Shown: in pieces, positions 39,275-50,028 of the stretch
Position numbering within the stretch: the first letter of the stretch is position 1
Layout of the letters: every line of letters begins with the position of its first letter
Assembly (NCBI GenBank): GCA_964501315.1
Contig: CAZCSO010000004.1
Span: forward strand, 24,179 to 88,178
Origin: an uncultured Candidatus Izemoplasmatales bacterium
GTDB lineage: Bacteria; Bacillota_I; Bacilli_A; Izemoplasmatales; Hujiaoplasmataceae
Direction: 5' to 3'
Length of the DNA stretch: 64,000 nt
Made by a program: the position numbers and the translations under genes
The notes under the pieces: model-generated
What the model was told of the DNA's origin: nothing
Database searches by the model: none
The model's input: the letters and a program-made list of their open reading frames with translations, nothing else

Positions 39275-41088
<1,814 letters not shown>

Positions 41089-41156
41089 ATAAATAACCTC
41101 CTTTGGTGTGTATATACATCACTCTAAAAGGGATTATTATCAAGTAATACGAGCAC

Positions 41157-41324
41157 TTATTTTTTATTCTTTAAAGGCATTTGAATGATTGGTATTTCAA
41201 TAGATCTACGAATCATCTTTTCAACCTTTTTCTTTATGTAATCTTCATCTTTTTTATCGGCGACTTGAGTATTTATAACATAGACAGTGTCACCGATTTT
41301 AGTATTATAATTTAATCTATCCAT
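41157..41324 (-). CDS. possible small ORF (55 aa), hypothetical
   Basis: Below the ORF-track cutoff. ATG 41324 is preceded by GGTGA. Translates MDRLNYNTKIGDTVYVINTQVADKKDEDYIKKKVEKMIRRSIEIPIIQMPLKNKK. It fills an otherwise empty 295-nt gap in a tightly packed operon. Confidence 0.35.
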   Translation of the reverse strand: MDRLNYNTKIGDTVYVINTQVADKKDEDYIKKKVEKMIRRSIEIPIIQMPLKNKK

Positions 41325-41383
41325 GCTATTCACCAAAAGGATAGGAGCTAACCTAGAAGCCCTAAATTAGCCCCTAAATCGCC

Positions 41384-42280
41384 TTAATTTTGATTGTTTT
41401 CTAGAGATTCAAGAATTAATACCTTACAAGCCTGTGCTTCGGTTAATTTGAAATCTAAGCGTTCTTTGGATGCATAACCTATATCGCCATTTTCTAGATA
41501 TAATTCCTTCAATACTTTAACTGCGATTCTTTCTCTTAAAAGGAAAGTAAGATAAGTGAAATTACCAAATAGAAGTGGCTTACTTGGATTTGTCATGTAA
41601 TTGGAAATAACGACCTTTTTGCCTAAGATGGTAGAATCAGCATTATTCCATAAATAATTACCTGAATCATCTTTTAACTTTCTTAATTTAAGTGCTGTTT
41701 CATCATTGGTAATAAAAATAGCTTCATCCCTATATTCCTTATCTAAAGAAAAGAATAAATCGATTACCGAATCATATGTGATTTCAGGAACTGATACACA
41801 GCCCAGATCATAATTTAACAAACCAAGTGGCTCTTTAACGCCTGTTCCATTAAGAATTAGCTTTTCTTCAGCTTTACCATATCTTTTAGATAAAGTCTTT
41901 CTTAAATAATCGGTCATATTGATTTTTAAATCATTGACAGTAGAACCTTTGACTTTAACGATTAAACCTAATTTATAAGATTTATATCTAAGTTCAGCCG
42001 TTGATTCATCTTCAACAAAGGCTTTATTATCTTCATCAACTACAACAGGTAAAGATGCAGAAGTGTTAATTGTTAATACGCCATCAGCTGTATCAGTTTC
42101 AACAAGATTCATGTATTTTCTAAATAAGTTATGTTTATCTAGAATCGATGCATCAATTGGAAGTTCAATATAGCCATCTGGTCTTAATTTCTCGATGTCG
42201 CCATAAACATCATCAGTAGGTTTTAATTTAAGTGCATTTTCTACGGCACTTGCGTATTTTGATAAGTAAATGTTATTCAT
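41384..42280 (-). CDS. HK97-fold phage major capsid protein family (short form, no delta/scaffold domain)
   Basis: AEEKLILNGTGVKEPLGLLN (capsid G.G..EP.G block), ILGKKVVISNYM, LLFGNFTYL, ERLDFKL. These match the Phage_capsid family pattern. Confidence 0.85.
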   Translation of the reverse strand: MNNIYLSKYASAVENALKLKPTDDVYGDIEKLRPDGYIELPIDASILDKHNLFRKYMNLVETDTADGVLTINTSASLPVVVDEDNKAFVEDESTAELRYKSYKLGLIVKVKGSTVNDLKINMTDYLRKTLSKRYGKAEEKLILNGTGVKEPLGLLNYDLGCVSVPEITYDSVIDLFFSLDKEYRDEAIFITNDETALKLRKLKDDSGNYLWNNADSTILGKKVVISNYMTNPSKPLLFGNFTYLTFLLRERIAVKVLKELYLENGDIGYASKERLDFKLTEAQACKVLILESLENNQN

Positions 42281-42300
42281 TTTTTTTAATCCTCCGTTTT

Positions 42301-42540
42301 TTAATATTTACCATTCTCAAATTTTTTTCTTACGTACTCTCTCGCTTCTTCATAAGTCTTAAAGAAGATAGTTGAACGGTTATAGCCAACCATAAAAGGC
42401 ATAGGTGTTATACGCTTGCTTTTAAATATGGTGATTTGGCCATAAATTCTATTAGGAAGTACAAATACACTTTTGTATTTTGAGTTTTCCAAATCGACTT
42501 TTTCAGGTAGGTCTAAACCTAAATAAACTTGATTAATCAT
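42301..42540 (-). CDS. hypothetical 79-aa protein
   Basis: ATG 42540 follows GGAGGA and overlaps the upstream stop by 8 nt (ATGATTAA). No recognisable motif. Confidence 0.55.
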   Translation of the reverse strand: MINQVYLGLDLPEKVDLENSKYKSVFVLPNRIYGQITIFKSKRITPMPFMVGYNRSTIFFKTYEEAREYVRKKFENGKY

Positions 42541-42805
42541 TTTTAATTCCTCCATTTTTGCATTGTTTATTCCAGTAGCTAATTCGGCAGCGGTCGCTAC
42601 AATATCTCTTGATTTTATGTCCCTTAATAACTTTTATCTCCATTCCACAATTAAGGCATTTGGTATATTTAGGAAGAGCTTCTTTATGTCTTCTAAAATA
42701 GGATTTAATTGTGTTATATGGAACTGAAGTTAAAAGAGAAATATCCATCATAGAATATCCATCAGCTCTTAAATTTTTAATTATTCTTTGTTCTTTATCA
42801 GTCAT
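42533..42805 (-). CDS. HTH (sigma-70 region 4 / LuxR-like) protein with a C-terminal Cys4 zinc ribbon
   Basis: The start at ATG 42805 follows GGAGGA. GYSMMDISLLTSVPYNTIKSYFRR is the HTH. Zinc ribbon: CLNC-x15-YCSDRC. Confidence 0.7.
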   Translation of the reverse strand: MTDKEQRIIKNLRADGYSMMDISLLTSVPYNTIKSYFRRHKEALPKYTKCLNCGMEIKVIKGHKIKRYCSDRCRISYWNKQCKNGGIKND

Positions 42806-42943
42806 ATAAATTTCCTCCTTTTTATCTTTAAACGAATTGGGTAATATACCCCCTTTGAAAACGCGAATATGCACACGAGACCCCTGGCCGGTGTCTAGAT
42901 TAATAGCACCAGAGATTTGATGGGGCCCAGGTCATATTAATTT

Positions 42944-43058
42944 TGTCCTTTATGTCCTTTTGTCCTTATATAGAAAGAAATCTTCAATAAAAACATCTAT
43001 AAAATAAATAAATTAATTAATATTTTGTATATATAGGGACAATGTGACAAAAGGGACA
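42944..43058. repeat. iteron cluster flanking an AT-rich spacer: putative replication origin of the island
   Basis: TGTCCTT occurs three times (42944, 42953, 42961). An AT-rich stretch of about 67 bp follows. Then AGGGACA occurs twice in inverted orientation (43035, 43052). The cluster lies immediately 3' of the replicase gene stop at 43065. Confidence 0.55.
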
Positions 43059-43064
43059 ATATTC

Positions 43065-45341
43065 TTAACTTGAATCAATGGTGTAAATGCTAGGATTAAT
43101 AAGGTAGCTTTGACCTTTTGGTCTACCAATATTAGTTTGATTAGATTCGCATTCTTTTAAATAACCATAATCACATAATAGATTTAATGCAGGTATTACT
43201 TCATCTTTAGTCTTAAATGACCTAACAAGCCTCATAACATCACGAGCTGTAATATTATCTTTATGTGGCGTTTGTTTAATTAAAGAATCAATAATCTTTT
43301 TGGCATTTTTCTTAGTGGTATCAAGGCCTAACATATCAAAGGCATATAAAGCATGATCTAAAAAATAATCTCCTACCTTAATGGCATCCAACATTGTTTT
43401 CTTTTGGACTATGTAATTACCATCAACAAGCGGTGTTCCATCATTTAAAAACGGGTCATACTTAATTCCAAAGGCTCTAGTTAATAGTCCTGATATTCTT
43501 AAGATATTACCAACTAGTTTGCCTGCCCAAGCACCAATATCCTTAAGGTCGTTTTTAAGCCTAAATTCAAAATTATCATGATATCTTTCAAGTTCTTTAT
43601 AGGCATCATCAGTAAGTGAGATTGTATCCATAAAGGTTGTATCTTCATTTAATATTAAATTAATAAGAGAATAGAAAGCTTGTTTAGTATCTTCGCTTAT
43701 TACATCTGTAGTAAGTTTTCTAGAACCTACCATTGATTTAGGAATCGAATAAAGAAATCTTGCATTAAGTCCTCTACCACTAAATATTGGATTATTAAGT
43801 ATCGTTTCAAGTACTCTTGGTTGAACCATTAGTAGGATTGTGAGTTTTGGCTTTTTAAGTGAAATTGACTCACGACCGATTCTATCAACCCTTACATAAT
43901 CTCCTGAATAGCCTTTAAGCAGAATATCGATATTAACTACCTTAGAATAAGCACCAGATAGAACATCAAATATACCACCCTCACTAGATATAATGGATAG
44001 TGATTCATCTTGTTCCTTTAACTTATTAGCTAGAACTTCAGGTGTTACATCATCAGCTGTTAAAACTAATTTATGTAGCCTTTTAAAACCATTTATTTTA
44101 GTTATCACTTCATCGAGTTCTGATGTAGTTGCTTTACCTTTTTCAACATCTTTAACTAGTTTATTTCGCTTTGTAATAAGTGCTTGATATTCTAGTTCGG
44201 ACTTTTCTCGTTCTAGTGAATGAGCTTCGTTATAATTAATTTCAAATGTATGTATTACTTTTATCATTTGGTTAATTACAGCTGATTTTCTTTCACTAGG
44301 TTCTGCAACTACCATCGCATATAAGTTAAGTGGTTCATCCCAGTCGGATTTACCTTGAATTTGATACTTTCTTTGCATTGATAAAGCTAAAACTGATAAT
44401 GCGATTACACCTGCCATATCTATTGGTGTTTGTGTAGCTTCACTAACTGCTAAACAATAATTTTTAATAGCATCAGGAAAAACATCAATTGGAAATGGTA
44501 AGAGTGGTCTTTCATTAAGTGGAATAAGCGAATCCCATTTAATATCTTCCTTTTGGTTATATTCATCTGGTTTAATGTAATTAGGACTATTTACAATCTT
44601 TGTTTTATAGAATTTAGTAGCACTAGACCATATGAGTTTAAGTTCTGCATTATCTAGGGGTGGCATGCACCTTTCACTTACCTTTAAAAATTCATTATAA
44701 GCATCAGCTGTATCGCCATATCTTTTAATAATTTTTGAAGCTTCTTTAGATAATGTAGAATTGCGACTGCCCTCAAGTATTGGAGCATCTTGCATTAGGA
44801 AATTTTCAGATTCTTTGTTCCATATAAATTCAGACAATGTTTTATCTCCTTCAACTAGTTCAACTTGTGGGTTAGATGTTCCAAAGAAGAATCTAGCTGA
44901 ATCAAGTGCATTATTATCTATAAAAGGAAAATAGTTATAGACCTTTTGTTTTAAAGATGAATATTTAGCTTCATCCGTTATTTCATCTATTGGAAACAAA
45001 ACATGGAACTTAGGCCTAGCCTTTTTACCATTTTTAGATATTAGATGATGTCTTGAATATTGAACATAAAATCCAACTTCAGGAAATGCCTTTTTTACAT
45101 CTTCAACATAAATCCAATTAGATGAATCTTCAGCATGGTCATTATCAATATCAACAGGTAAGCAATCCGCCTTAATAAAGTTTTTAATGCTTCTAATATT
45201 ATCCTTATAGGTAGCACATACATAATCTAGTGTTATTGCCTTACTAAATGATTCAATATTATTAACTATAACTTTATTGTCATATCTGATATTTTGTGGT
45301 AATCCTCTAACATTTGATTTATAGATTGTTATTGATTTCAT
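43065..45341 (-). CDS. replication protein: N-terminal primase-polymerase (prim-pol) domain fused to a DUF3987-type helicase-like domain
   Basis: CLPVDIDND is the DxD motif and RPKFHVLFP the His motif of prim-pol. NLYAMVVAEPSERKSAVINQM resembles the DUF3987 P-loop region. The start at ATG 45341 follows GGAGGT. Confidence 0.7.
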   Translation of the reverse strand: MKSITIYKSNVRGLPQNIRYDNKVIVNNIESFSKAITLDYVCATYKDNIRSIKNFIKADCLPVDIDNDHAEDSSNWIYVEDVKKAFPEVGFYVQYSRHHLISKNGKKARPKFHVLFPIDEITDEAKYSSLKQKVYNYFPFIDNNALDSARFFFGTSNPQVELVEGDKTLSEFIWNKESENFLMQDAPILEGSRNSTLSKEASKIIKRYGDTADAYNEFLKVSERCMPPLDNAELKLIWSSATKFYKTKIVNSPNYIKPDEYNQKEDIKWDSLIPLNERPLLPFPIDVFPDAIKNYCLAVSEATQTPIDMAGVIALSVLALSMQRKYQIQGKSDWDEPLNLYAMVVAEPSERKSAVINQMIKVIHTFEINYNEAHSLEREKSELEYQALITKRNKLVKDVEKGKATTSELDEVITKINGFKRLHKLVLTADDVTPEVLANKLKEQDESLSIISSEGGIFDVLSGAYSKVVNIDILLKGYSGDYVRVDRIGRESISLKKPKLTILLMVQPRVLETILNNPIFSGRGLNARFLYSIPKSMVGSRKLTTDVISEDTKQAFYSLINLILNEDTTFMDTISLTDDAYKELERYHDNFEFRLKNDLKDIGAWAGKLVGNILRISGLLTRAFGIKYDPFLNDGTPLVDGNYIVQKKTMLDAIKVGDYFLDHALYAFDMLGLDTTKKNAKKIIDSLIKQTPHKDNITARDVMRLVRSFKTKDEVIPALNLLCDYGYLKECESNQTNIGRPKGQSYLINPSIYTIDSS

Positions 45342-45519
45342 CAGCCTTACCTCCACTAGACTCCTTTAGCCATTTCTTATATTCATCAATAGGAATAATG
45401 ATTCTTGAACCAATTCTTATAGATGGAAAATTTGGACTTTTAATTAACTCATAAGCCTTAGGAATCGAAATGCCTAATTGGATAGCAAGTTCGTGTACTG
45501 TCATTGTAGTTTTTTCCAT
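45319..45519 (-). CDS. excisionase/MerR-type helix-turn-helix DNA-binding protein
   Basis: MTVHELAIQLGISIPKAYELIKSPNFPSIRIGSRIIIPIDEYKKWL is the classic excisionase-family HTH. The start at ATG 45519 follows GGAGGT. Confidence 0.8.
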   Translation of the reverse strand: MEKTTMTVHELAIQLGISIPKAYELIKSPNFPSIRIGSRIIIPIDEYKKWLKESSGGKADEINNNL

Positions 45520-45657
45520 TTCAGTTACCTCCATATTTGTTGATACACAACAGGCAGATGATCTACTCAATTTATTTGAACCATCCTTATCAAGTAATTG
45601 AGTTAAACCTGATAGCGAATTTATTTAATCTAATTCAAATAAAATCAATCCAATCTC

Positions 45658-45727
45658 TTGTGTTCGATGTCATTTTACTATATAATGTAATCGAAAACTA
45701 ACTTCGGTTGATTACAAGTCGATTACA
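45658..45727 (+). promoter_or_regulatory. promoter of the 375-aa gene with three GATTACA-type operator boxes
   Basis: TTGTGT (45658-45663), 17-nt spacer, TATAAT (45681-45686). Boxes are TGTAATCG (45686-45693, inverted), TGATTACA (45709-45716) and CGATTACA (45720-45727). Confidence 0.5.
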
Positions 45728-45750
45728 TCAAAAAGGATGGTTTTTAGTAT

Positions 45751-46878
45751 ATGAGAAATCACTACAAAAAAGAAAAATCCTTCGCTCAAGTGTTTAAGGA
45801 AGGATTCGGATTTACCGAGATAGGTGGTATAGCAGATACTGCTTATAGACTCGTTAGATATGATGATTATATGTTTGAAGATGGTGTAACTATTGAAAAA
45901 TATAATCTAATAAATGAAGACATGATTGTGAATAAGAATCCACTTTCTATGCCTACTTTAGATGATGATAATACAATTACAGGAAAGAAATTACTTATAT
46001 CATTATTAAAGCTTGCGGATGACATAGATAAGAATTGTAAAACTAAATATGAAACAGTTGATAAGATTATTGAATGGTGTAAAAAAGTAGCTCATCCATA
46101 TGACATAAACAAGCTTTATGAAAAATATGAAGCAGACCTTTTAGGTATAGAGCCTGATATTCCAATCGATTTAGTATATGATGGTTCTTTTAAATATTAT
46201 GATTTTATGCAAGATCTATGTGACTTATATGATGTAGTTATCAACTGGCATGCGTTTTCTGAATTAATTAGAGGTAATGTTGATTATGCTTACAATTTAA
46301 ATGATAGTGGCCCATCTTTTATAAATGGTTCTATATATGAAAAATATAAGAGAGTAAAAAACGATAGGGGGATTAACCTTACACGTGAAGATAGGCAAAA
46401 TTGGATAAAGGATAATTATACGGGTGACTTCATTGAAACTCTCATAAAGGAAAGAGAAGCTCATAACATTTATGGAGATTTATTATCTAAAGAAACTTTT
46501 AGAAAGAACGTATTAAAAGATAAAAAGAAAATATATTCAAGAATCATTTCATATATACCACCTGTAAGAATGAAACTTAAATATATTGATAATGAAGGTA
46601 ATGCTGAATTTAGAGCTGAGATTAATTCGGTGTTCGATATTTGTTGGTATACCTTAGCAAGAATGATAGCTTCTAATGCTCCACAACAAGATGAAGATTT
46701 AGATTATGGTGGAGATAGATGGAATGAAGGAACATTAGGTGTATGTGCTAATTGTGGTACATTCTTCCTTAAGAATAATAGTGTTCAAAAGTATTGTGAT
46801 AATGCATCATGCAAGGCAGCTAGAATCAGAAATAATGTAAGGTCACTTAGAGAACGTAGAAAGAATAATCAAGAATAA
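45751..46878 (+). CDS. hypothetical 375-aa protein with a C-terminal Cys4 zinc ribbon and basic tail
   Basis: Divergent from the xis/replicase operon. CANC-x13-YCDNASC followed by ARIRNNVRSLRERRKN (from nt 46744). The rest has no recognisable motif. Confidence 0.6.
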   Translation: MRNHYKKEKSFAQVFKEGFGFTEIGGIADTAYRLVRYDDYMFEDGVTIEKYNLINEDMIVNKNPLSMPTLDDDNTITGKKLLISLLKLADDIDKNCKTKYETVDKIIEWCKKVAHPYDINKLYEKYEADLLGIEPDIPIDLVYDGSFKYYDFMQDLCDLYDVVINWHAFSELIRGNVDYAYNLNDSGPSFINGSIYEKYKRVKNDRGINLTREDRQNWIKDNYTGDFIETLIKEREAHNIYGDLLSKETFRKNVLKDKKKIYSRIISYIPPVRMKLKYIDNEGNAEFRAEINSVFDICWYTLARMIASNAPQQDEDLDYGGDRWNEGTLGVCANCGTFFLKNNSVQKYCDNASCKAARIRNNVRSLRERRKNNQE

Positions 46879-46997
46879 CTATAATTCGATTCAATATAAA
46901 ATAAAAATTACAATATATTAATCTAATGAGTAAAAATGATATATTTATACAAACTTTGAGAAATAACAAAAAAACTATGCGAAATCGTAGTAAACCC

Positions 46998-47026
46998 TTG
47001 AGTTCTAAAAGTAAAAATGGTATAAT
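46998..47026 (+). promoter_or_regulatory. promoter of the HTH-methyltransferase operon
   Basis: TTGAGT (46998-47003), 17-nt spacer, TATAAT (47021-47026) with TGG (extended -10). The imperfect palindrome ACTATGCGAAATCGTAGT lies just upstream. Confidence 0.55.
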
Positions 47027-47047
47027 TATGATATCTAGGAGGACATT

Positions 47048-47257
47048 ATGGCACTATCATATAATAAACTATGGAAACTTCTTATTGATAAGGGGTTAAA
47101 GAAAACTGATTTGAATAAATTAACTGGAATTAGCGATTCAACTATGGCTAAATTAACGAAAGGCGAAAACATTAATACAGAAATTTTAGAAAGAATATGC
47201 AAAGCATTAAATTGTCAAATTTCTGATATAGTTGAATATGTTTCGGAGGACAAATAA
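47048..47257 (+). CDS. small Cro/C1 (XRE)-type HTH transcriptional regulator
   Basis: 69 aa. KKTDLNKLTGISDSTMAKLTKGENINTEILERICKALNCQISDIVEY. RBS AGGAGG. Confidence 0.85.
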   Translation: MALSYNKLWKLLIDKGLKKTDLNKLTGISDSTMAKLTKGENINTEILERICKALNCQISDIVEYVSEDK

Positions 47258-47259
47258 AT

Positions 47260-48480
47260 ATGATTAAACAATCAATGAATACTCATCTAACTCGTGAAGA
47301 AATAATTAAAAGTGGAAGTGTGTATACTGGTCCTGAGTTAGTTAATTTGGTTTATAGTCAAGTGAATTCGTTTATTGATAAAAACACAGTTATTGGTGAT
47401 TTTGGCTCAGGATATGGAGCCTTTATAGAAAGATTTAAAAACGAAGGAAAAAGATGCTTTGGAACAGAACACGATGATTTATCATTCGAATTACTTAAAT
47501 CCGAATATCCTGATATAGATGTATATCATGAAAACTCATTATTAAATGTTAATAGAGAAAAATACAATTTATTAGAAAATGATAAGTTAATTATTGTGGG
47601 AAATCCACCTTATAATGATACAACTAGTATTTTTAAAAAAGGTGAAAAAGGTGAATTGGTTTGTGATTCTGATATTATTTCAAGAGACTTTGGTATATCT
47701 TTTTTGAAGGCATATAACAAGCTAAATGCAGAATATGTATGTATACTACATCCCTTAGCCTATTTAATAAAAAAACAGAACTTTAATTCTCTAGGGGATT
47801 TTAAAAACAATTATAAATTAATTTCAGCAACAGTTTTTTCAAGTAAAGAATTTGAAAGCATTAAGAAGTCTAATTCAGATTTCCCAGTCGTTTCTGCATT
47901 ATATAAAAGAGATAAAACAGGTATGAATTATGAATATGTTCAAAATTTTAAATTTAGAATTTTTAAAGGTTCTGGCTTATTTGTCTTAAGTAATATCATA
48001 ACTATTGATGGATATATCGGAAAATATCCAACGAGTCATAAAACTAAGGCAACAAAATATGAGTATAATCTTTTTGGTGAAAAGCAAAAGAGCGATGACT
48101 TAAGTTCTCGTCTTCAATTCTATACCTTAAGAGATATGAATGCTTTATTAAGAAATGCTGGGTTCGTAGAAGGTATAATTCCTAATGGGATTGATGTTTC
48201 GCTTGAAAACCTTTATCAATATTCCTGGTTATATTTTCTTAAGAGCAATTTTAATCCAAAAGATTACAAGTTTTTATATGGTAATCTATCTCCATTATAT
48301 ACTAACAAAATTGAAGATGACTCATTTAAAGCTTGTGTTGTTTGGTACGCATATAACAATTCAGAATTAGTTCAAAAATATATGGACGAAGAAAAAATAA
48401 AAGCATTATACGGACCTAAAACAGATCAATATAATGCATTATTTGAAGAATTAAACAATTTGTACAATATATTTAAATAG
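47260..48480 (+). CDS. gamma-class N6-adenine DNA methyltransferase (TaqI/Eco57I-like)
   Basis: Motif X SVYTGPELVNLV, motif I VIGDFGSGYGAF, motif IV IIVGNPPYN, in that order. The C-terminal half has no motifs and is presumably the target-recognition domain. The ATG lies 2 nt after the HTH stop. Confidence 0.85.
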   Translation: MIKQSMNTHLTREEIIKSGSVYTGPELVNLVYSQVNSFIDKNTVIGDFGSGYGAFIERFKNEGKRCFGTEHDDLSFELLKSEYPDIDVYHENSLLNVNREKYNLLENDKLIIVGNPPYNDTTSIFKKGEKGELVCDSDIISRDFGISFLKAYNKLNAEYVCILHPLAYLIKKQNFNSLGDFKNNYKLISATVFSSKEFESIKKSNSDFPVVSALYKRDKTGMNYEYVQNFKFRIFKGSGLFVLSNIITIDGYIGKYPTSHKTKATKYEYNLFGEKQKSDDLSSRLQFYTLRDMNALLRNAGFVEGIIPNGIDVSLENLYQYSWLYFLKSNFNPKDYKFLYGNLSPLYTNKIEDDSFKACVVWYAYNNSELVQKYMDEEKIKALYGPKTDQYNALFEELNNLYNIFK

Positions 48481-48506
48481 TATGAATATAATAATTATTA
48501 AAATGA

Positions 48507-49271
48507 TTAAAATGCATTTTTAACAATTACATTTAAAATTTCTAAAACATCATGATTATGTGCTGTCGAGCACATGCCAAAGCAAATTAATAAATCAAAA
48601 ACAACAGATTTCATATTTTCATCGAATGTAATGATTCCGTTAGGAGTTTCTGCAGATGTGTGATTGATAATTTTATTTGCATTATCAAAAGCATTGACTG
48701 GGATTATTAAGTATAGCATAGGTTGAACACCAGTTGCATATTGTTGCTTTTGAATCATAATTTCAATTAAAAGTTTAGAATCTCTTGGTTGAGTAATGAA
48801 AGTGGGAAGTTTGGTTGAAGAAGATAAAAACTTAATATTATTTAATGTGACAGAATCTTCTTTTTTTACTTCTATTGAATACTTATCTTGTAAAAAAGTT
48901 TTAATAGAAGCAATTTTGTTACAAACATCAAGTATTTCTTTTTTAGAAATAATATTATTTTTGCACATAAAGTAAGTAATCTCTGATAATTCATATGGAT
49001 GCTTACTTTTTTTATTTGCTCCAATAAAAACAAACTCGTCAGAATTCAATCTTGTTTCTTTTTCGTCTTTTCCAATTATCGTATCATATCCAATTTGCCA
49101 TTCAAGATAAGAATTGTTAGTTATAATTGTTGATTTTGGTGCAAATCCATTTCCAAATTCTTGAATATCATTTCTTGTTTTACATCTAAATTTACCTTGA
49201 CTAGTTAAAGGTAAGTTAACAACAACATTATTATTTTTTATTTCATAATTCATCTCTGGTGTTTTTGCCAT
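48507..49271 (-). CDS. hypothetical 254-aa protein (second gene of the ORFan pair; candidate nuclease/effector by context only)
   Basis: The ATG lies 1 nt after the upstream stop, with GGGAGGA inside the upstream gene. The only motif hint is a weak D115-x18-E134-V-K136. Confidence 0.6.
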   Translation of the reverse strand: MAKTPEMNYEIKNNNVVVNLPLTSQGKFRCKTRNDIQEFGNGFAPKSTIITNNSYLEWQIGYDTIIGKDEKETRLNSDEFVFIGANKKSKHPYELSEITYFMCKNNIISKKEILDVCNKIASIKTFLQDKYSIEVKKEDSVTLNNIKFLSSSTKLPTFITQPRDSKLLIEIMIQKQQYATGVQPMLYLIIPVNAFDNANKIINHTSAETPNGIITFDENMKSVVFDLLICFGMCSTAHNHDVLEILNVIVKNAF

Positions 49272-49272
49272 T

Positions 49273-49875
49273 TTATAATTCCTCCCATTTTAAAGTGTTA
49301 ATTAAAAAATCTTTTGTTCGTTCGTAATCATAGCTTTCCATTTTAGAAACTATTTCAATCATGCAATTATGCATTGGCATAAGGTCGAAATATCTTCCAC
49401 TATTTATAAAATAAGGACTATTTCGATATGCTTTTAGCTTATCTTCCGTTCCATAAATAATGCCAGTTTGTGCATTAATCATCATTGTGATTTTTAGCTT
49501 TTTAGTGTCTAAGTAAATGTTTTTATCATCATTTCTATTTGAAATACCATAATCTAATGGTGTTCCTCCGTGTGTTCCAAGAGTCATTTGTCCCTGAACT
49601 AATCCTTCAACAAATCTTCTTTGTTCATATGAACTAGAAGCTTTATAACCAAGCTTATTAACTTGTTCTTGAAATGGTTGTTTTTCTAGCCCAGAAGAAA
49701 AATTACTTATTCCGTTTAAAGTTTCAACATCGTGAATTAAAATCATTATGTCTTGACATTCCTCAAAAGAAAGACTTAATAATCCATTTGAAATTCTTGA
49801 GTCATGTAAATCAATTATTAATGAAATATATCTTGAAGAAAACTTTCCGCTCCTAGTAAATTTCCAAAAAAACAT
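49273..49875 (-). CDS. hypothetical 200-aa protein (first gene of the ORFan pair)
   Basis: ATG 49875 is preceded by AAAGGA. The ORF-track start at 49905 is a TTG extension. No recognisable motif. An extended -10 promoter TGATATAAT lies upstream on the minus strand, near 49939-49947. Confidence 0.6.
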   Translation of the reverse strand: MFFWKFTRSGKFSSRYISLIIDLHDSRISNGLLSLSFEECQDIMILIHDVETLNGISNFSSGLEKQPFQEQVNKLGYKASSSYEQRRFVEGLVQGQMTLGTHGGTPLDYGISNRNDDKNIYLDTKKLKITMMINAQTGIIYGTEDKLKAYRNSPYFINSGRYFDLMPMHNCMIEIVSKMESYDYERTKDFLINTLKWEEL

Positions 49876-49945
49876 ACATGTTATCCTTTCTATAAATTTT
49901 ATCAAAATGCTAAGTATGTATTGATATGACTCTATAATTATATCA

Positions 49946-50028
49946 TTTTTTTCTCAAAATTACTATTTTACGACTCTTTATTTAAGCTAAAAAAACATTT
50001 TTTCTCAAATTATTGAGGAAGTGACTCT
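49946..50028. repeat. two degenerate direct repeats of about 50 bp at the right edge of the island
   Basis: TTTTTTCTCAAAATTACT...GACTCT (49946-49977) and TTTTTTCTCAAATTATT...GACTCT (49998-50028). A third GACTCT is at 49928-49933. Confidence 0.6.

Follow-up and report, generated by a model that had tools for sequence, protein, structure and literature searches.

What kind of genetic system is it in which a small helix-turn-helix (HTH) protein gene and a DNA methyltransferase gene face two further genes of no evident kinship? The question is raised by positions 47048-49875 of a 64,000-nt stretch of contig CAZCSO010000004.1, from an uncultured Candidatus Izemoplasmatales bacterium. This whole stretch is called the window in what follows, and coordinates are those of the window unless another locus is named. 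The module consists of four genes, encoding a 69-residue HTH protein and a 406-residue methyltransferase (M) on the forward strand, and two proteins, A (200 residues) and B (254 residues), on the reverse strand. An earlier note on this DNA took A and B to be an ORFan pair, and the module to be either an atypical restriction-modification (R-M) system or an uncatalogued defence system. The former description of the module holds and the latter does not, since B is a PabI-family restriction enzyme and M is the partner usual in that family: the module is an atypical R-M variant, made up of a controller-like (C-like) regulator, a methyltransferase, a restriction enzyme and A. It is, moreover, almost certainly an R-M system of the PabI type. 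The reading of the whole as a four-gene PabI-family base-excision R-M cassette, carried on a satellite-like island and having A as an auxiliary DNA-directed effector, appears rather probable.

The assignment to the PabI family is carried in the first place by protein B. It matches Pfam family PF09522 (RE_R_Pab1) with an E-value of 1.4e-19 and 70.8 bits, the gathering cut-off being 25, and the same family is carried by all full-length close homologues of B among the matches listed; the PADLOC model REase_II, for type II restriction endonucleases, also matches. Compared with the PDB by sequence, B finds R.CcoLI of Campylobacter coli (7cfa, E 1.5e-31) and R.PabI of Pyrococcus abyssi (2dvy, E 2e-6). 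An AlphaFold (AF2) model built from 51 homologues, with a predicted local distance difference test score (pLDDT) of 94.8, has the HALFPIPE fold. In a Foldseek search with this model all 16 significant PDB matches are PabI-family entries, among them 7cfa_A (R.CcoLI; E 4.6e-21, template modelling (TM) scores 0.77/0.83) and 3waz_B from the R.PabI-DNA complex (TM 0.73/0.84), the TM scores over 7cfa, 3waz and 5iff lying at ~0.73-0.85. By sequence and by model, B is to be classed as a predicted R.PabI/HALFPIPE restriction DNA glycosylase and apurinic/apyrimidinic (AP) lyase, such that the label of ORFan does not apply to it.

The residues known to matter in the characterised enzymes are also in place. 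R.CcoLI has the catalytic triad Y52/H222/D225, equivalent to Y68/H211/D214 of R.PabI (PMC10273834, PMC7806768), its AP-lyase lysine is K71, equivalent to K73 of R.PabI (PMC7806768, PMC10273834), and ten of its residues, K17, R19, E47, Q49, I50, Q158, Q164, M166, Y168 and F215, contact the bases of GTAC (PMC7806768). In B the triad is Y62/H238/D241, invariant in alignments of nine, seven and 51 sequences, while the lysine aligned with K71 is K90, invariant in the main paralogues and missing only in the second paralogues that are found in some loci (B'). The counterparts of the ten base contacts are K27, R29, E57, Q59, I60, Q177, Q183, M185, Y187 and F231. Within the seven-sequence alignment all of these functional residues are invariant, and within the 51-sequence alignment all are invariant apart from K27 and I60, which are nearly so. 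B agrees with PabI, CcoLI and HpyAXII (Helicobacter pylori) in Pfam family and fold, in the Tyr/His/Asp triad and the AP-lyase lysine, and in each of the ten residues that contact GTAC. Given the conservation of these contacts, the specificity of B is very probably GTAC as well. A weak D115...E134-V-K136 pattern in B, the only hint that the earlier note saw there, was rejected as a sign of PD-(D/E)XK chemistry, since none of the three positions is invariant or nearly so in the 7- and 51-sequence alignments and the family does not use such chemistry.

The B' proteins are divergent PabI paralogues encoded beside B in several related loci, which are given here by L numbers (L010, 5832-6491; L012, 2413-3207; L013, 3278-4012; L014, 5753-6487; L019, 4481-5251). 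In the two that were aligned, from L010 and L012, the Tyr/His/Asp triad is kept and the AP-lyase lysine is lost, a combination which hints at B/B' heterodimers.

The methyltransferase (47260..48480, forward strand) is in keeping with this picture. Its motifs stand in the gamma-class order, with motif X (SVYTGPELVNLV) at residues 21-32, motif I (VIGDFGSGYGAF) at 44-55 and motif IV (GNPPYN) at 114-119, followed by ~290 residues where, by position only, the target-recognition domain would lie. Gamma-class M.PabI homologues with a C-terminal target-recognition domain have been described as co-occurring with R.PabI homologues (PMC4615327), and both the motif order and the C-terminal half of M agree with that description (PMC4615327). 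M matches the PADLOC model MTase_II (E 5.5e-44) and is 40% identical (E 3e-62) to a methyltransferase from a Campylobacter jejuni plasmid, encoded directly upstream of a gene annotated as R.Pab1. A scan of metagenomes with a profile from seven B-type sequences gave at least 387 stretches encoding PabI-family relatives, most of them two-gene systems of B then M; of these relatives, 80 loci (L013-L092) were recovered and examined, and in most of them an M homologue adjoins the PabI gene. The 406-residue enzyme is assigned as the predicted cognate bacterial gamma-class N6-adenine methyltransferase of M.PabI type, whose expected product is GTm6AC.

The layout of the module had been read correctly from the outset. 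The HTH gene (47048..47257 including its stop codon, forward strand) ends 2 nt before the ATG of M at 47260, and the 406-residue M with its motifs X, I and IV is borne out by the open reading frame map and the sequence. B (48507..49271, reverse strand) is adjacent to M and convergent with it, the two stop codons being separated by 26 A/T-rich nucleotides (48481..48506) in which no terminator-like hairpin was found. In L013, which holds an 85-91%-identical module, the site of this spacer is filled by a B' gene. A (49273..49875, reverse strand) stands before B, its stop codon lying 1 nt from the ATG of B with GGGAGGA embedded upstream of that ATG, again as described before. The ATG at 49875 is taken to be the true start of A because all 40 aligned homologues open with M-F-F-W-K-F or a close variant. 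The extended -10 promoter claimed for the A-B operon is likewise present, as the element TGATATAAT reading from 49945 to 49937 on the minus strand (49937..49945), and the element is kept upstream of A in L010, L013 and L014. The HTH-M operon has its own predicted promoter on the forward strand at 46998..47026, a consensus match only, with TTGAGT, a 17-nt spacing and TATAAT (10 of the 12 consensus positions) and a TG before the -10, making it also of the extended -10 kind.

How far does this module depart from the PabI systems already described? Like them, it has a gamma-class N6-adenine methyltransferase as partner, homologous to the Campylobacter one, and like them it is carried by a mobile element. 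The published systems, however, are two-gene systems of restriction enzyme and methyltransferase, whereas the module has an HTH gene before M and a conserved fourth gene, A, and its restriction and methyltransferase genes are convergent. Published PabI descriptions (PMC4615327, PMC10273834, PMC7806768) mention no fourth component like A. The distribution is different also. According to the literature, PabI-family systems occur only in Campylobacterales and a small number of (hyper)thermophiles (PMC4615327, PMC10273834), whereas the host of the window has a GC content of 37% and the relatives of the module lie in Clostridia, Verrucomicrobia, and gut and other metagenome assemblies. The emerging picture is that the PabI family is widespread in gut and environmental bacteria, far beyond the distribution given in a 2023 review, and that one broad branch of it carries a conserved extra protein of unmatched fold which is inseparable from M.

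It is this extra protein that gives the locus its interest, and for A, as distinct from B, the view that it resembles nothing catalogued stands. There is no match in Pfam, PADLOC, NCBIfam or PHROGs, either for the single sequence or for all 40 family members, and no sequence relative in the PDB for the single sequence or the profile. The AlphaFold model has a pLDDT of 92 and a predicted TM score of 0.91. A Foldseek search with it returned no match, the best E-values being 2.3 in the PDB and 0.7 in BFVD with TM scores of at most 0.21, a null result that gains credibility from the immediate recovery of the correct fold when B was put through this pipeline. There is no profile or structural similarity to the known restriction nuclease folds (PD-(D/E)XK, HNH, GIY-YIG, PLD and HALFPIPE), nor was any fold or family match to AP endonucleases or lyases (Xth, Nfo, HhH-GPD, Fpg/Nei) obtained in Pfam, NCBIfam-type profile and Foldseek searches. 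The idea of A as a diverged PabI paralogue was considered and rejected, the hhalign probability against the PabI profile being 0.1 and no PabI entry being returned by Foldseek.

The A family is small. It comprises 45 proteins in a 5.8-billion-cluster collection and 31 clusters in a 1.84-billion-protein representative library, the latter all single-domain proteins of ~200 residues or fragments, and the only extra domain is a DpnD/PcfM tail in one member. Among 185,579 species genomes A occurs in three, namely two Clostridia metagenome-assembled genomes (MAGs) and one Verrucomicrobia MAG. Of the positions in the alignment of 40 homologues, ~35 are invariant, and many of these are polar (K5, T7, S13, Y16, D22, E51, N54, K65, Y83, R87, H102, D145, K146, R151, Y162, D164 and H169 among them). 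Over the same loci A is usually better conserved than B or M; in L001, for instance, the identities are 55% for A, 36% for B and 37% for M. The ratio of nonsynonymous to synonymous substitution rates (dN/dS) for A is 0.12-0.33. For L003, which has no B, it is 0.12-0.14, like that of B-containing pairs, a comparison that is weak since dS exceeds 1 and the loss of B is undated. One further form of A is seen on a 1661-nt ENA contig (protein P0085), where a 67-nt deletion between the two ATGs gives a 432-residue in-frame fusion of A residues 1-179 to B residue 2. Seen only once, it may have arisen naturally, by fusion or deletion, or be an error of assembly.

Across 18 distinct A loci with usable flanks, an M homologue is present in every one, adjacent to A or within the module, whereas an intact PabI gene is present in 15; the PabI gene is fragmented in L005 and absent from L003 and L007, in which A comes straight after M, the genes overlapping or lying 2 nt apart. 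Start and stop codons in the A loci often overlap or stand 1-13 nt apart. Where A and PabI genes occur together, they do so in at least six different orders: HTH-M-A-B (L001, L096); M-A-B (L095); M-B-A, whether or not an HTH gene stands first (L008, L009, L094, L098); M-B-B'-A (L012); A-B, A-B'-B or A-B-B' convergent on HTH-M (the window, L010, L013); M divergent from B-A (L011, L026); and A convergent on B (L019, L020). The linkage of A thus persists through repeated reshuffling of gene order, and a functional tie is therefore indicated. It is this persistence that makes it hardly credible that A is an unrelated hitch-hiker, carried by mobile elements and functionally unconnected with the R-M system. 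The rarity of the family and its lack of any detectable function would be in accord with such a passenger, but A is never found away from the M family in the 18 loci, even though these have differing flanks and differing hosts (Clostridia and Verrucomicrobia MAGs, and gut and other metagenome and sequencing-run assemblies), and no match to A exists in phage, plasmid and IMG/VR collections.

The converse, B without A, is common. Most PabI systems among the metagenome loci examined have no A, a large environmental clade consists of B then M only, and L017 and L018, with B 45-49% identical to that of the window, have B and M only. Closer still are L100-L103, human-gut contigs of up to 272 kb in which B is 75% and M 73% identical to the proteins of the window and where neither A nor the HTH gene is present. 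In L100 (4332-5001; also in L101-L103) a near-identical copy of the A-type promoter element, TAGTATTTTTGATAAAAAAATGTTATAAT, lies ~430 nt upstream of B and is followed by AT-rich non-coding DNA. The survival of this promoter copy upstream of B indicates that A was lost secondarily in L100. In a neighbour-joining tree of B sequences the loci containing A are spread over several deep clades. A is, then, an old and dispensable component: B can do without it, it has no strict need of B, and it is never seen without M. To the question in the earlier note whether the A-B pair always accompanies this methyltransferase, the answer is that A does so in all 18 loci but that the pair is not constant, B being intact in 15 of the 18 A loci and often found without A.

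The same distribution largely refutes the idea of a new type of restriction enzyme in which A and B would be obligate subunits. The translational coupling of the two genes in the window, with its 1-nt gap and embedded Shine-Dalgarno sequence, and the frequent adjacency of A and B elsewhere are what such an enzyme would lead one to expect. Against this, PabI enzymes are described as dimers which act alone, without a partner (PMC7806768, PMC10273834), and B is found without A (the 75%-identical B included) as A is found without B in two loci. Moreover, B itself carries all of the catalytic and DNA-reading residues, and a profile comparison of A with B was null. An obligate heteromer is accordingly very improbable.

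Extra components tied to R-M systems are familiar from other families, in the form of Vsr with the Dcm-type m5C methyltransferases and of the two-subunit nucleases BbvCI and Bpu10I. In the Vsr/Dcm- and BbvCI-type systems the third gene is kept tightly linked to the R-M pair and can remain with the methyltransferase after loss of the restriction gene, as A does. The likeness ends there, however, as A resembles neither Vsr nor PD-(D/E)XK subunits, and the two subunits of a BbvCI-type enzyme are homologues, which A and B are not.

What, then, might A do? Three features would fit a restriction effector or accessory enzyme: A is linked to M without exception, A and B can each do without the other, and A is conserved in the manner of an enzyme. 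The assignment is tentative, and somewhat less than even weight is given to it. In the mechanism proposed, M would methylate the adenine of the predicted target GTAC to give GTm6AC, while B would act on GTAC whose adenine is unmethylated, flipping that base out, excising it and then cleaving the strand by the AP-lyase activity of its own lysine, K90. The HTH protein, being co-transcribed with M, would tune expression. A would act as an auxiliary DNA-directed restriction effector, its harm checked by the same methylation, and might supply either a second activity parallel to that of B or a means of processing the abasic-site products of B. This effector reading echoes the report that AP endonucleases enhance restriction by R.PabI (PMC10273834, section 3.3). 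It is conceivable, if short of probable, that A founds a new enzyme family with an unseen fold, and that it constitutes a second methylation-checked effector, DNA-damaging or abasic-site-processing, beside B in a two-effector system sharing one methyltransferase.

An alternative is that A is a regulator or inhibitor, of an immunity or antitoxin-like kind, which binds B (or M) and so delays or dampens a toxic glycosylase on entry into an unmethylated host. PabI enzymes have been described as toxic and their genes as often inactivated (PMC10273834). A is packed tightly against B in both gene orders, often overlapping it or at 1-13 nt, and the two are joined in frame, as A(1-179)::B, on the P0085 contig; further, many A loci have no HTH gene, and there A could supply the control. 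Other observations speak against such a role. A usually diverges less rapidly than B (in L001 the identities are 55% and 36%), unlike a partner co-evolving with its target, its many invariant polar residues are typical of an active site, and its isoelectric point (pI) of ~6.1 is not that of a DNA mimic. Moreover, A is intact and apparently still under purifying selection in L003 and L007, which have no B, and in L019 and L020 it is convergent to B. A regulatory role for A is, in consequence, unlikely.

Less likely again is a role as accessory to the methyltransferase, for example as a specificity, stability or targeting factor, standing outside the restriction arm. Such a role would suit the finding that the M homologue is the sole invariable neighbour of A, in all 18 loci, and that the unit in L003 and L007 is M then A, overlapping or 2 nt apart, with no B. 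Yet the same M family works with B and without A in ~60 or more loci, a 73%-identical M in L100 does without A, as do the methyltransferases of the two-gene Campylobacter and Helicobacter systems (PMC4615327), and the length of M is similar with and without A, with no domain apparently missing.

To return to A as an auxiliary effector of a PabI-type cassette, several observations weigh against this reading and have to be set beside those that favour it. The profile and Foldseek searches show in A neither motif nor fold of a nuclease, glycosylase or AP endonuclease, and, with its pI of ~6.1, A is not obviously a basic DNA-binding protein. B has no evident need of a helper, because it keeps an AP-lyase lysine of its own, and indeed B thrives without A, both in L100-L103 at 75% identity and in a whole environmental clade of B then M. 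The presence of A in two loci without B could reflect merely a recent loss of B. The activities given here for M and B are predictions from their sequences and models, that of A is a proposal, and the role of the HTH protein is a matter of gene position and candidate operators. Lastly, the DNA around the module does not avoid the predicted target. Strong avoidance of PabI sites is on record for Helicobacter genomes (PMC10273834), whereas GTAC is not depleted in the window, with 112 sites observed and 127 expected (0.88), so that there is no genomic footprint here of long-term GTAC restriction. A recent arrival on a mobile island would explain this, and the lack of depletion is therefore consistent with recent acquisition. 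As an in-silico test of specificity, GTAC avoidance was uninformative at this observed/expected ratio of 0.88.

The interest of A lies in the chemistry that surrounds it. How the abasic sites that PabI-type enzymes make are turned into lethal breaks in mesophiles is still debated, the published candidates being the intrinsic AP-lyase activity and host AP endonucleases. Partner A offers a direct, testable handle on the fate of the abasic site and could reveal a new DNA-acting enzyme family. If A is indeed a methylation-checked effector, then the M-A pairs of L003 and L007 would each amount to a new kind of R-M system, complete in itself. If A is only a regulator, the finding comes down to a known R-M family having gained one more member, borne by a satellite-like island.

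The remaining component of the cassette, the HTH protein, has its best Pfam match in HTH_26 (E 1.9e-21), with a weaker match to HTH_3. An orthologous 69-residue gene abuts the start of M in L001, L010, L013-15 and L096, and in L098 a different HTH_3 gene takes its place before M. A small Cro/Xre-type HTH protein inside the cassette is a feature shared with Kpn2I and other type II systems with C proteins. The arrangement is different, however: the Cro/C1-type gene of the window is co-transcribed with M, 2 nt upstream of it, whereas the classical C gene lies upstream of the restriction gene and that of Kpn2I is divergent from M. In Kpn2I the controller, C.Kpn2I, represses the M promoter and the promoter of the restriction gene is C-independent (PMC6237814). 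Thus the view that a controller tied to M is atypical is right in so far as the arrangement is unusual, and wrong if it is meant as one without precedent, repression of an M promoter by C.Kpn2I being on record (PMC6237814).

Candidate operators can be pointed to at both promoters. Just upstream of the -35 element of the HTH-M promoter is an imperfect palindrome, CTATGCGAAATCGTAG (46975..46990), at the position of which L013 has CTTCGAGATATCGAAG, with perfect 6-nt arms. The motif TTTGAGAAA has four copies in the 64 kb of the window, three of them in the two promoter regions of the module. One is in the HTH-M promoter region (46955..46963, forward strand), and two direct copies lie upstream of and abutting the A-B promoter on the reverse strand (49950-49958 and 50001-50009). 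Both of the copies upstream of A are kept in L013 and L014, where the intervening DNA has diverged, and L010 has three copies of TTCTCAAA before its HTH gene. The TTTGAGAAA repeats and the palindrome are candidates only, as putative operators of the HTH protein, which itself is most likely a controller protein that would set the balance of methyltransferase to restriction enzyme through the two extended -10 promoters. The C. jejuni plasmid of L093 (NZ_CP092023) has, at 1671-1916, a hypothetical gene of 81 codons that overlaps the start of the PabI-type M gene, in the same place as the HTH gene of the window; its product has no Pfam match.

The module as a whole is the right-hand cargo of an island of ~10.7 kb (~39.2-49.9 kb; 39275-49905), the GC content of which is 0.27-0.31 against 0.35-0.40 in the flanks. 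Thus the placing of a methylation-linked defence module at the end of a low-GC, satellite-like island, as the earlier note had it, is upheld. The other genes of the island include those for a large serine recombinase (39275-40885), a phage capsid protein (41384-42280), a DUF3987 primase-like protein (43065-45356) and an HTH_17 protein (45319-45570), and the right boundary is set by the terminator of a chromosomal VTT-domain gene. In L010 the same module stands next to DUF3987 and Terminase_4 genes. By its gene content the island looks like an element of the phage-satellite type with the R-M cassette as cargo.

Two minor observations may be added. Between the replication genes of the island and the R-M cassette lies an open reading frame of 375 codons (45751-46878) with no Pfam or PHROG match, the product of which has a Cys-rich C-terminus (CANCGTFF...CDNASC), possibly a zinc ribbon. 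In the window (1-64000) GATC occurs 194 times against 395 expected, a ratio of 0.49 that is the lowest among 4-bp palindromes and suggests a long-standing GATC-targeting restriction pressure in the lineage, unrelated to the GTAC module.

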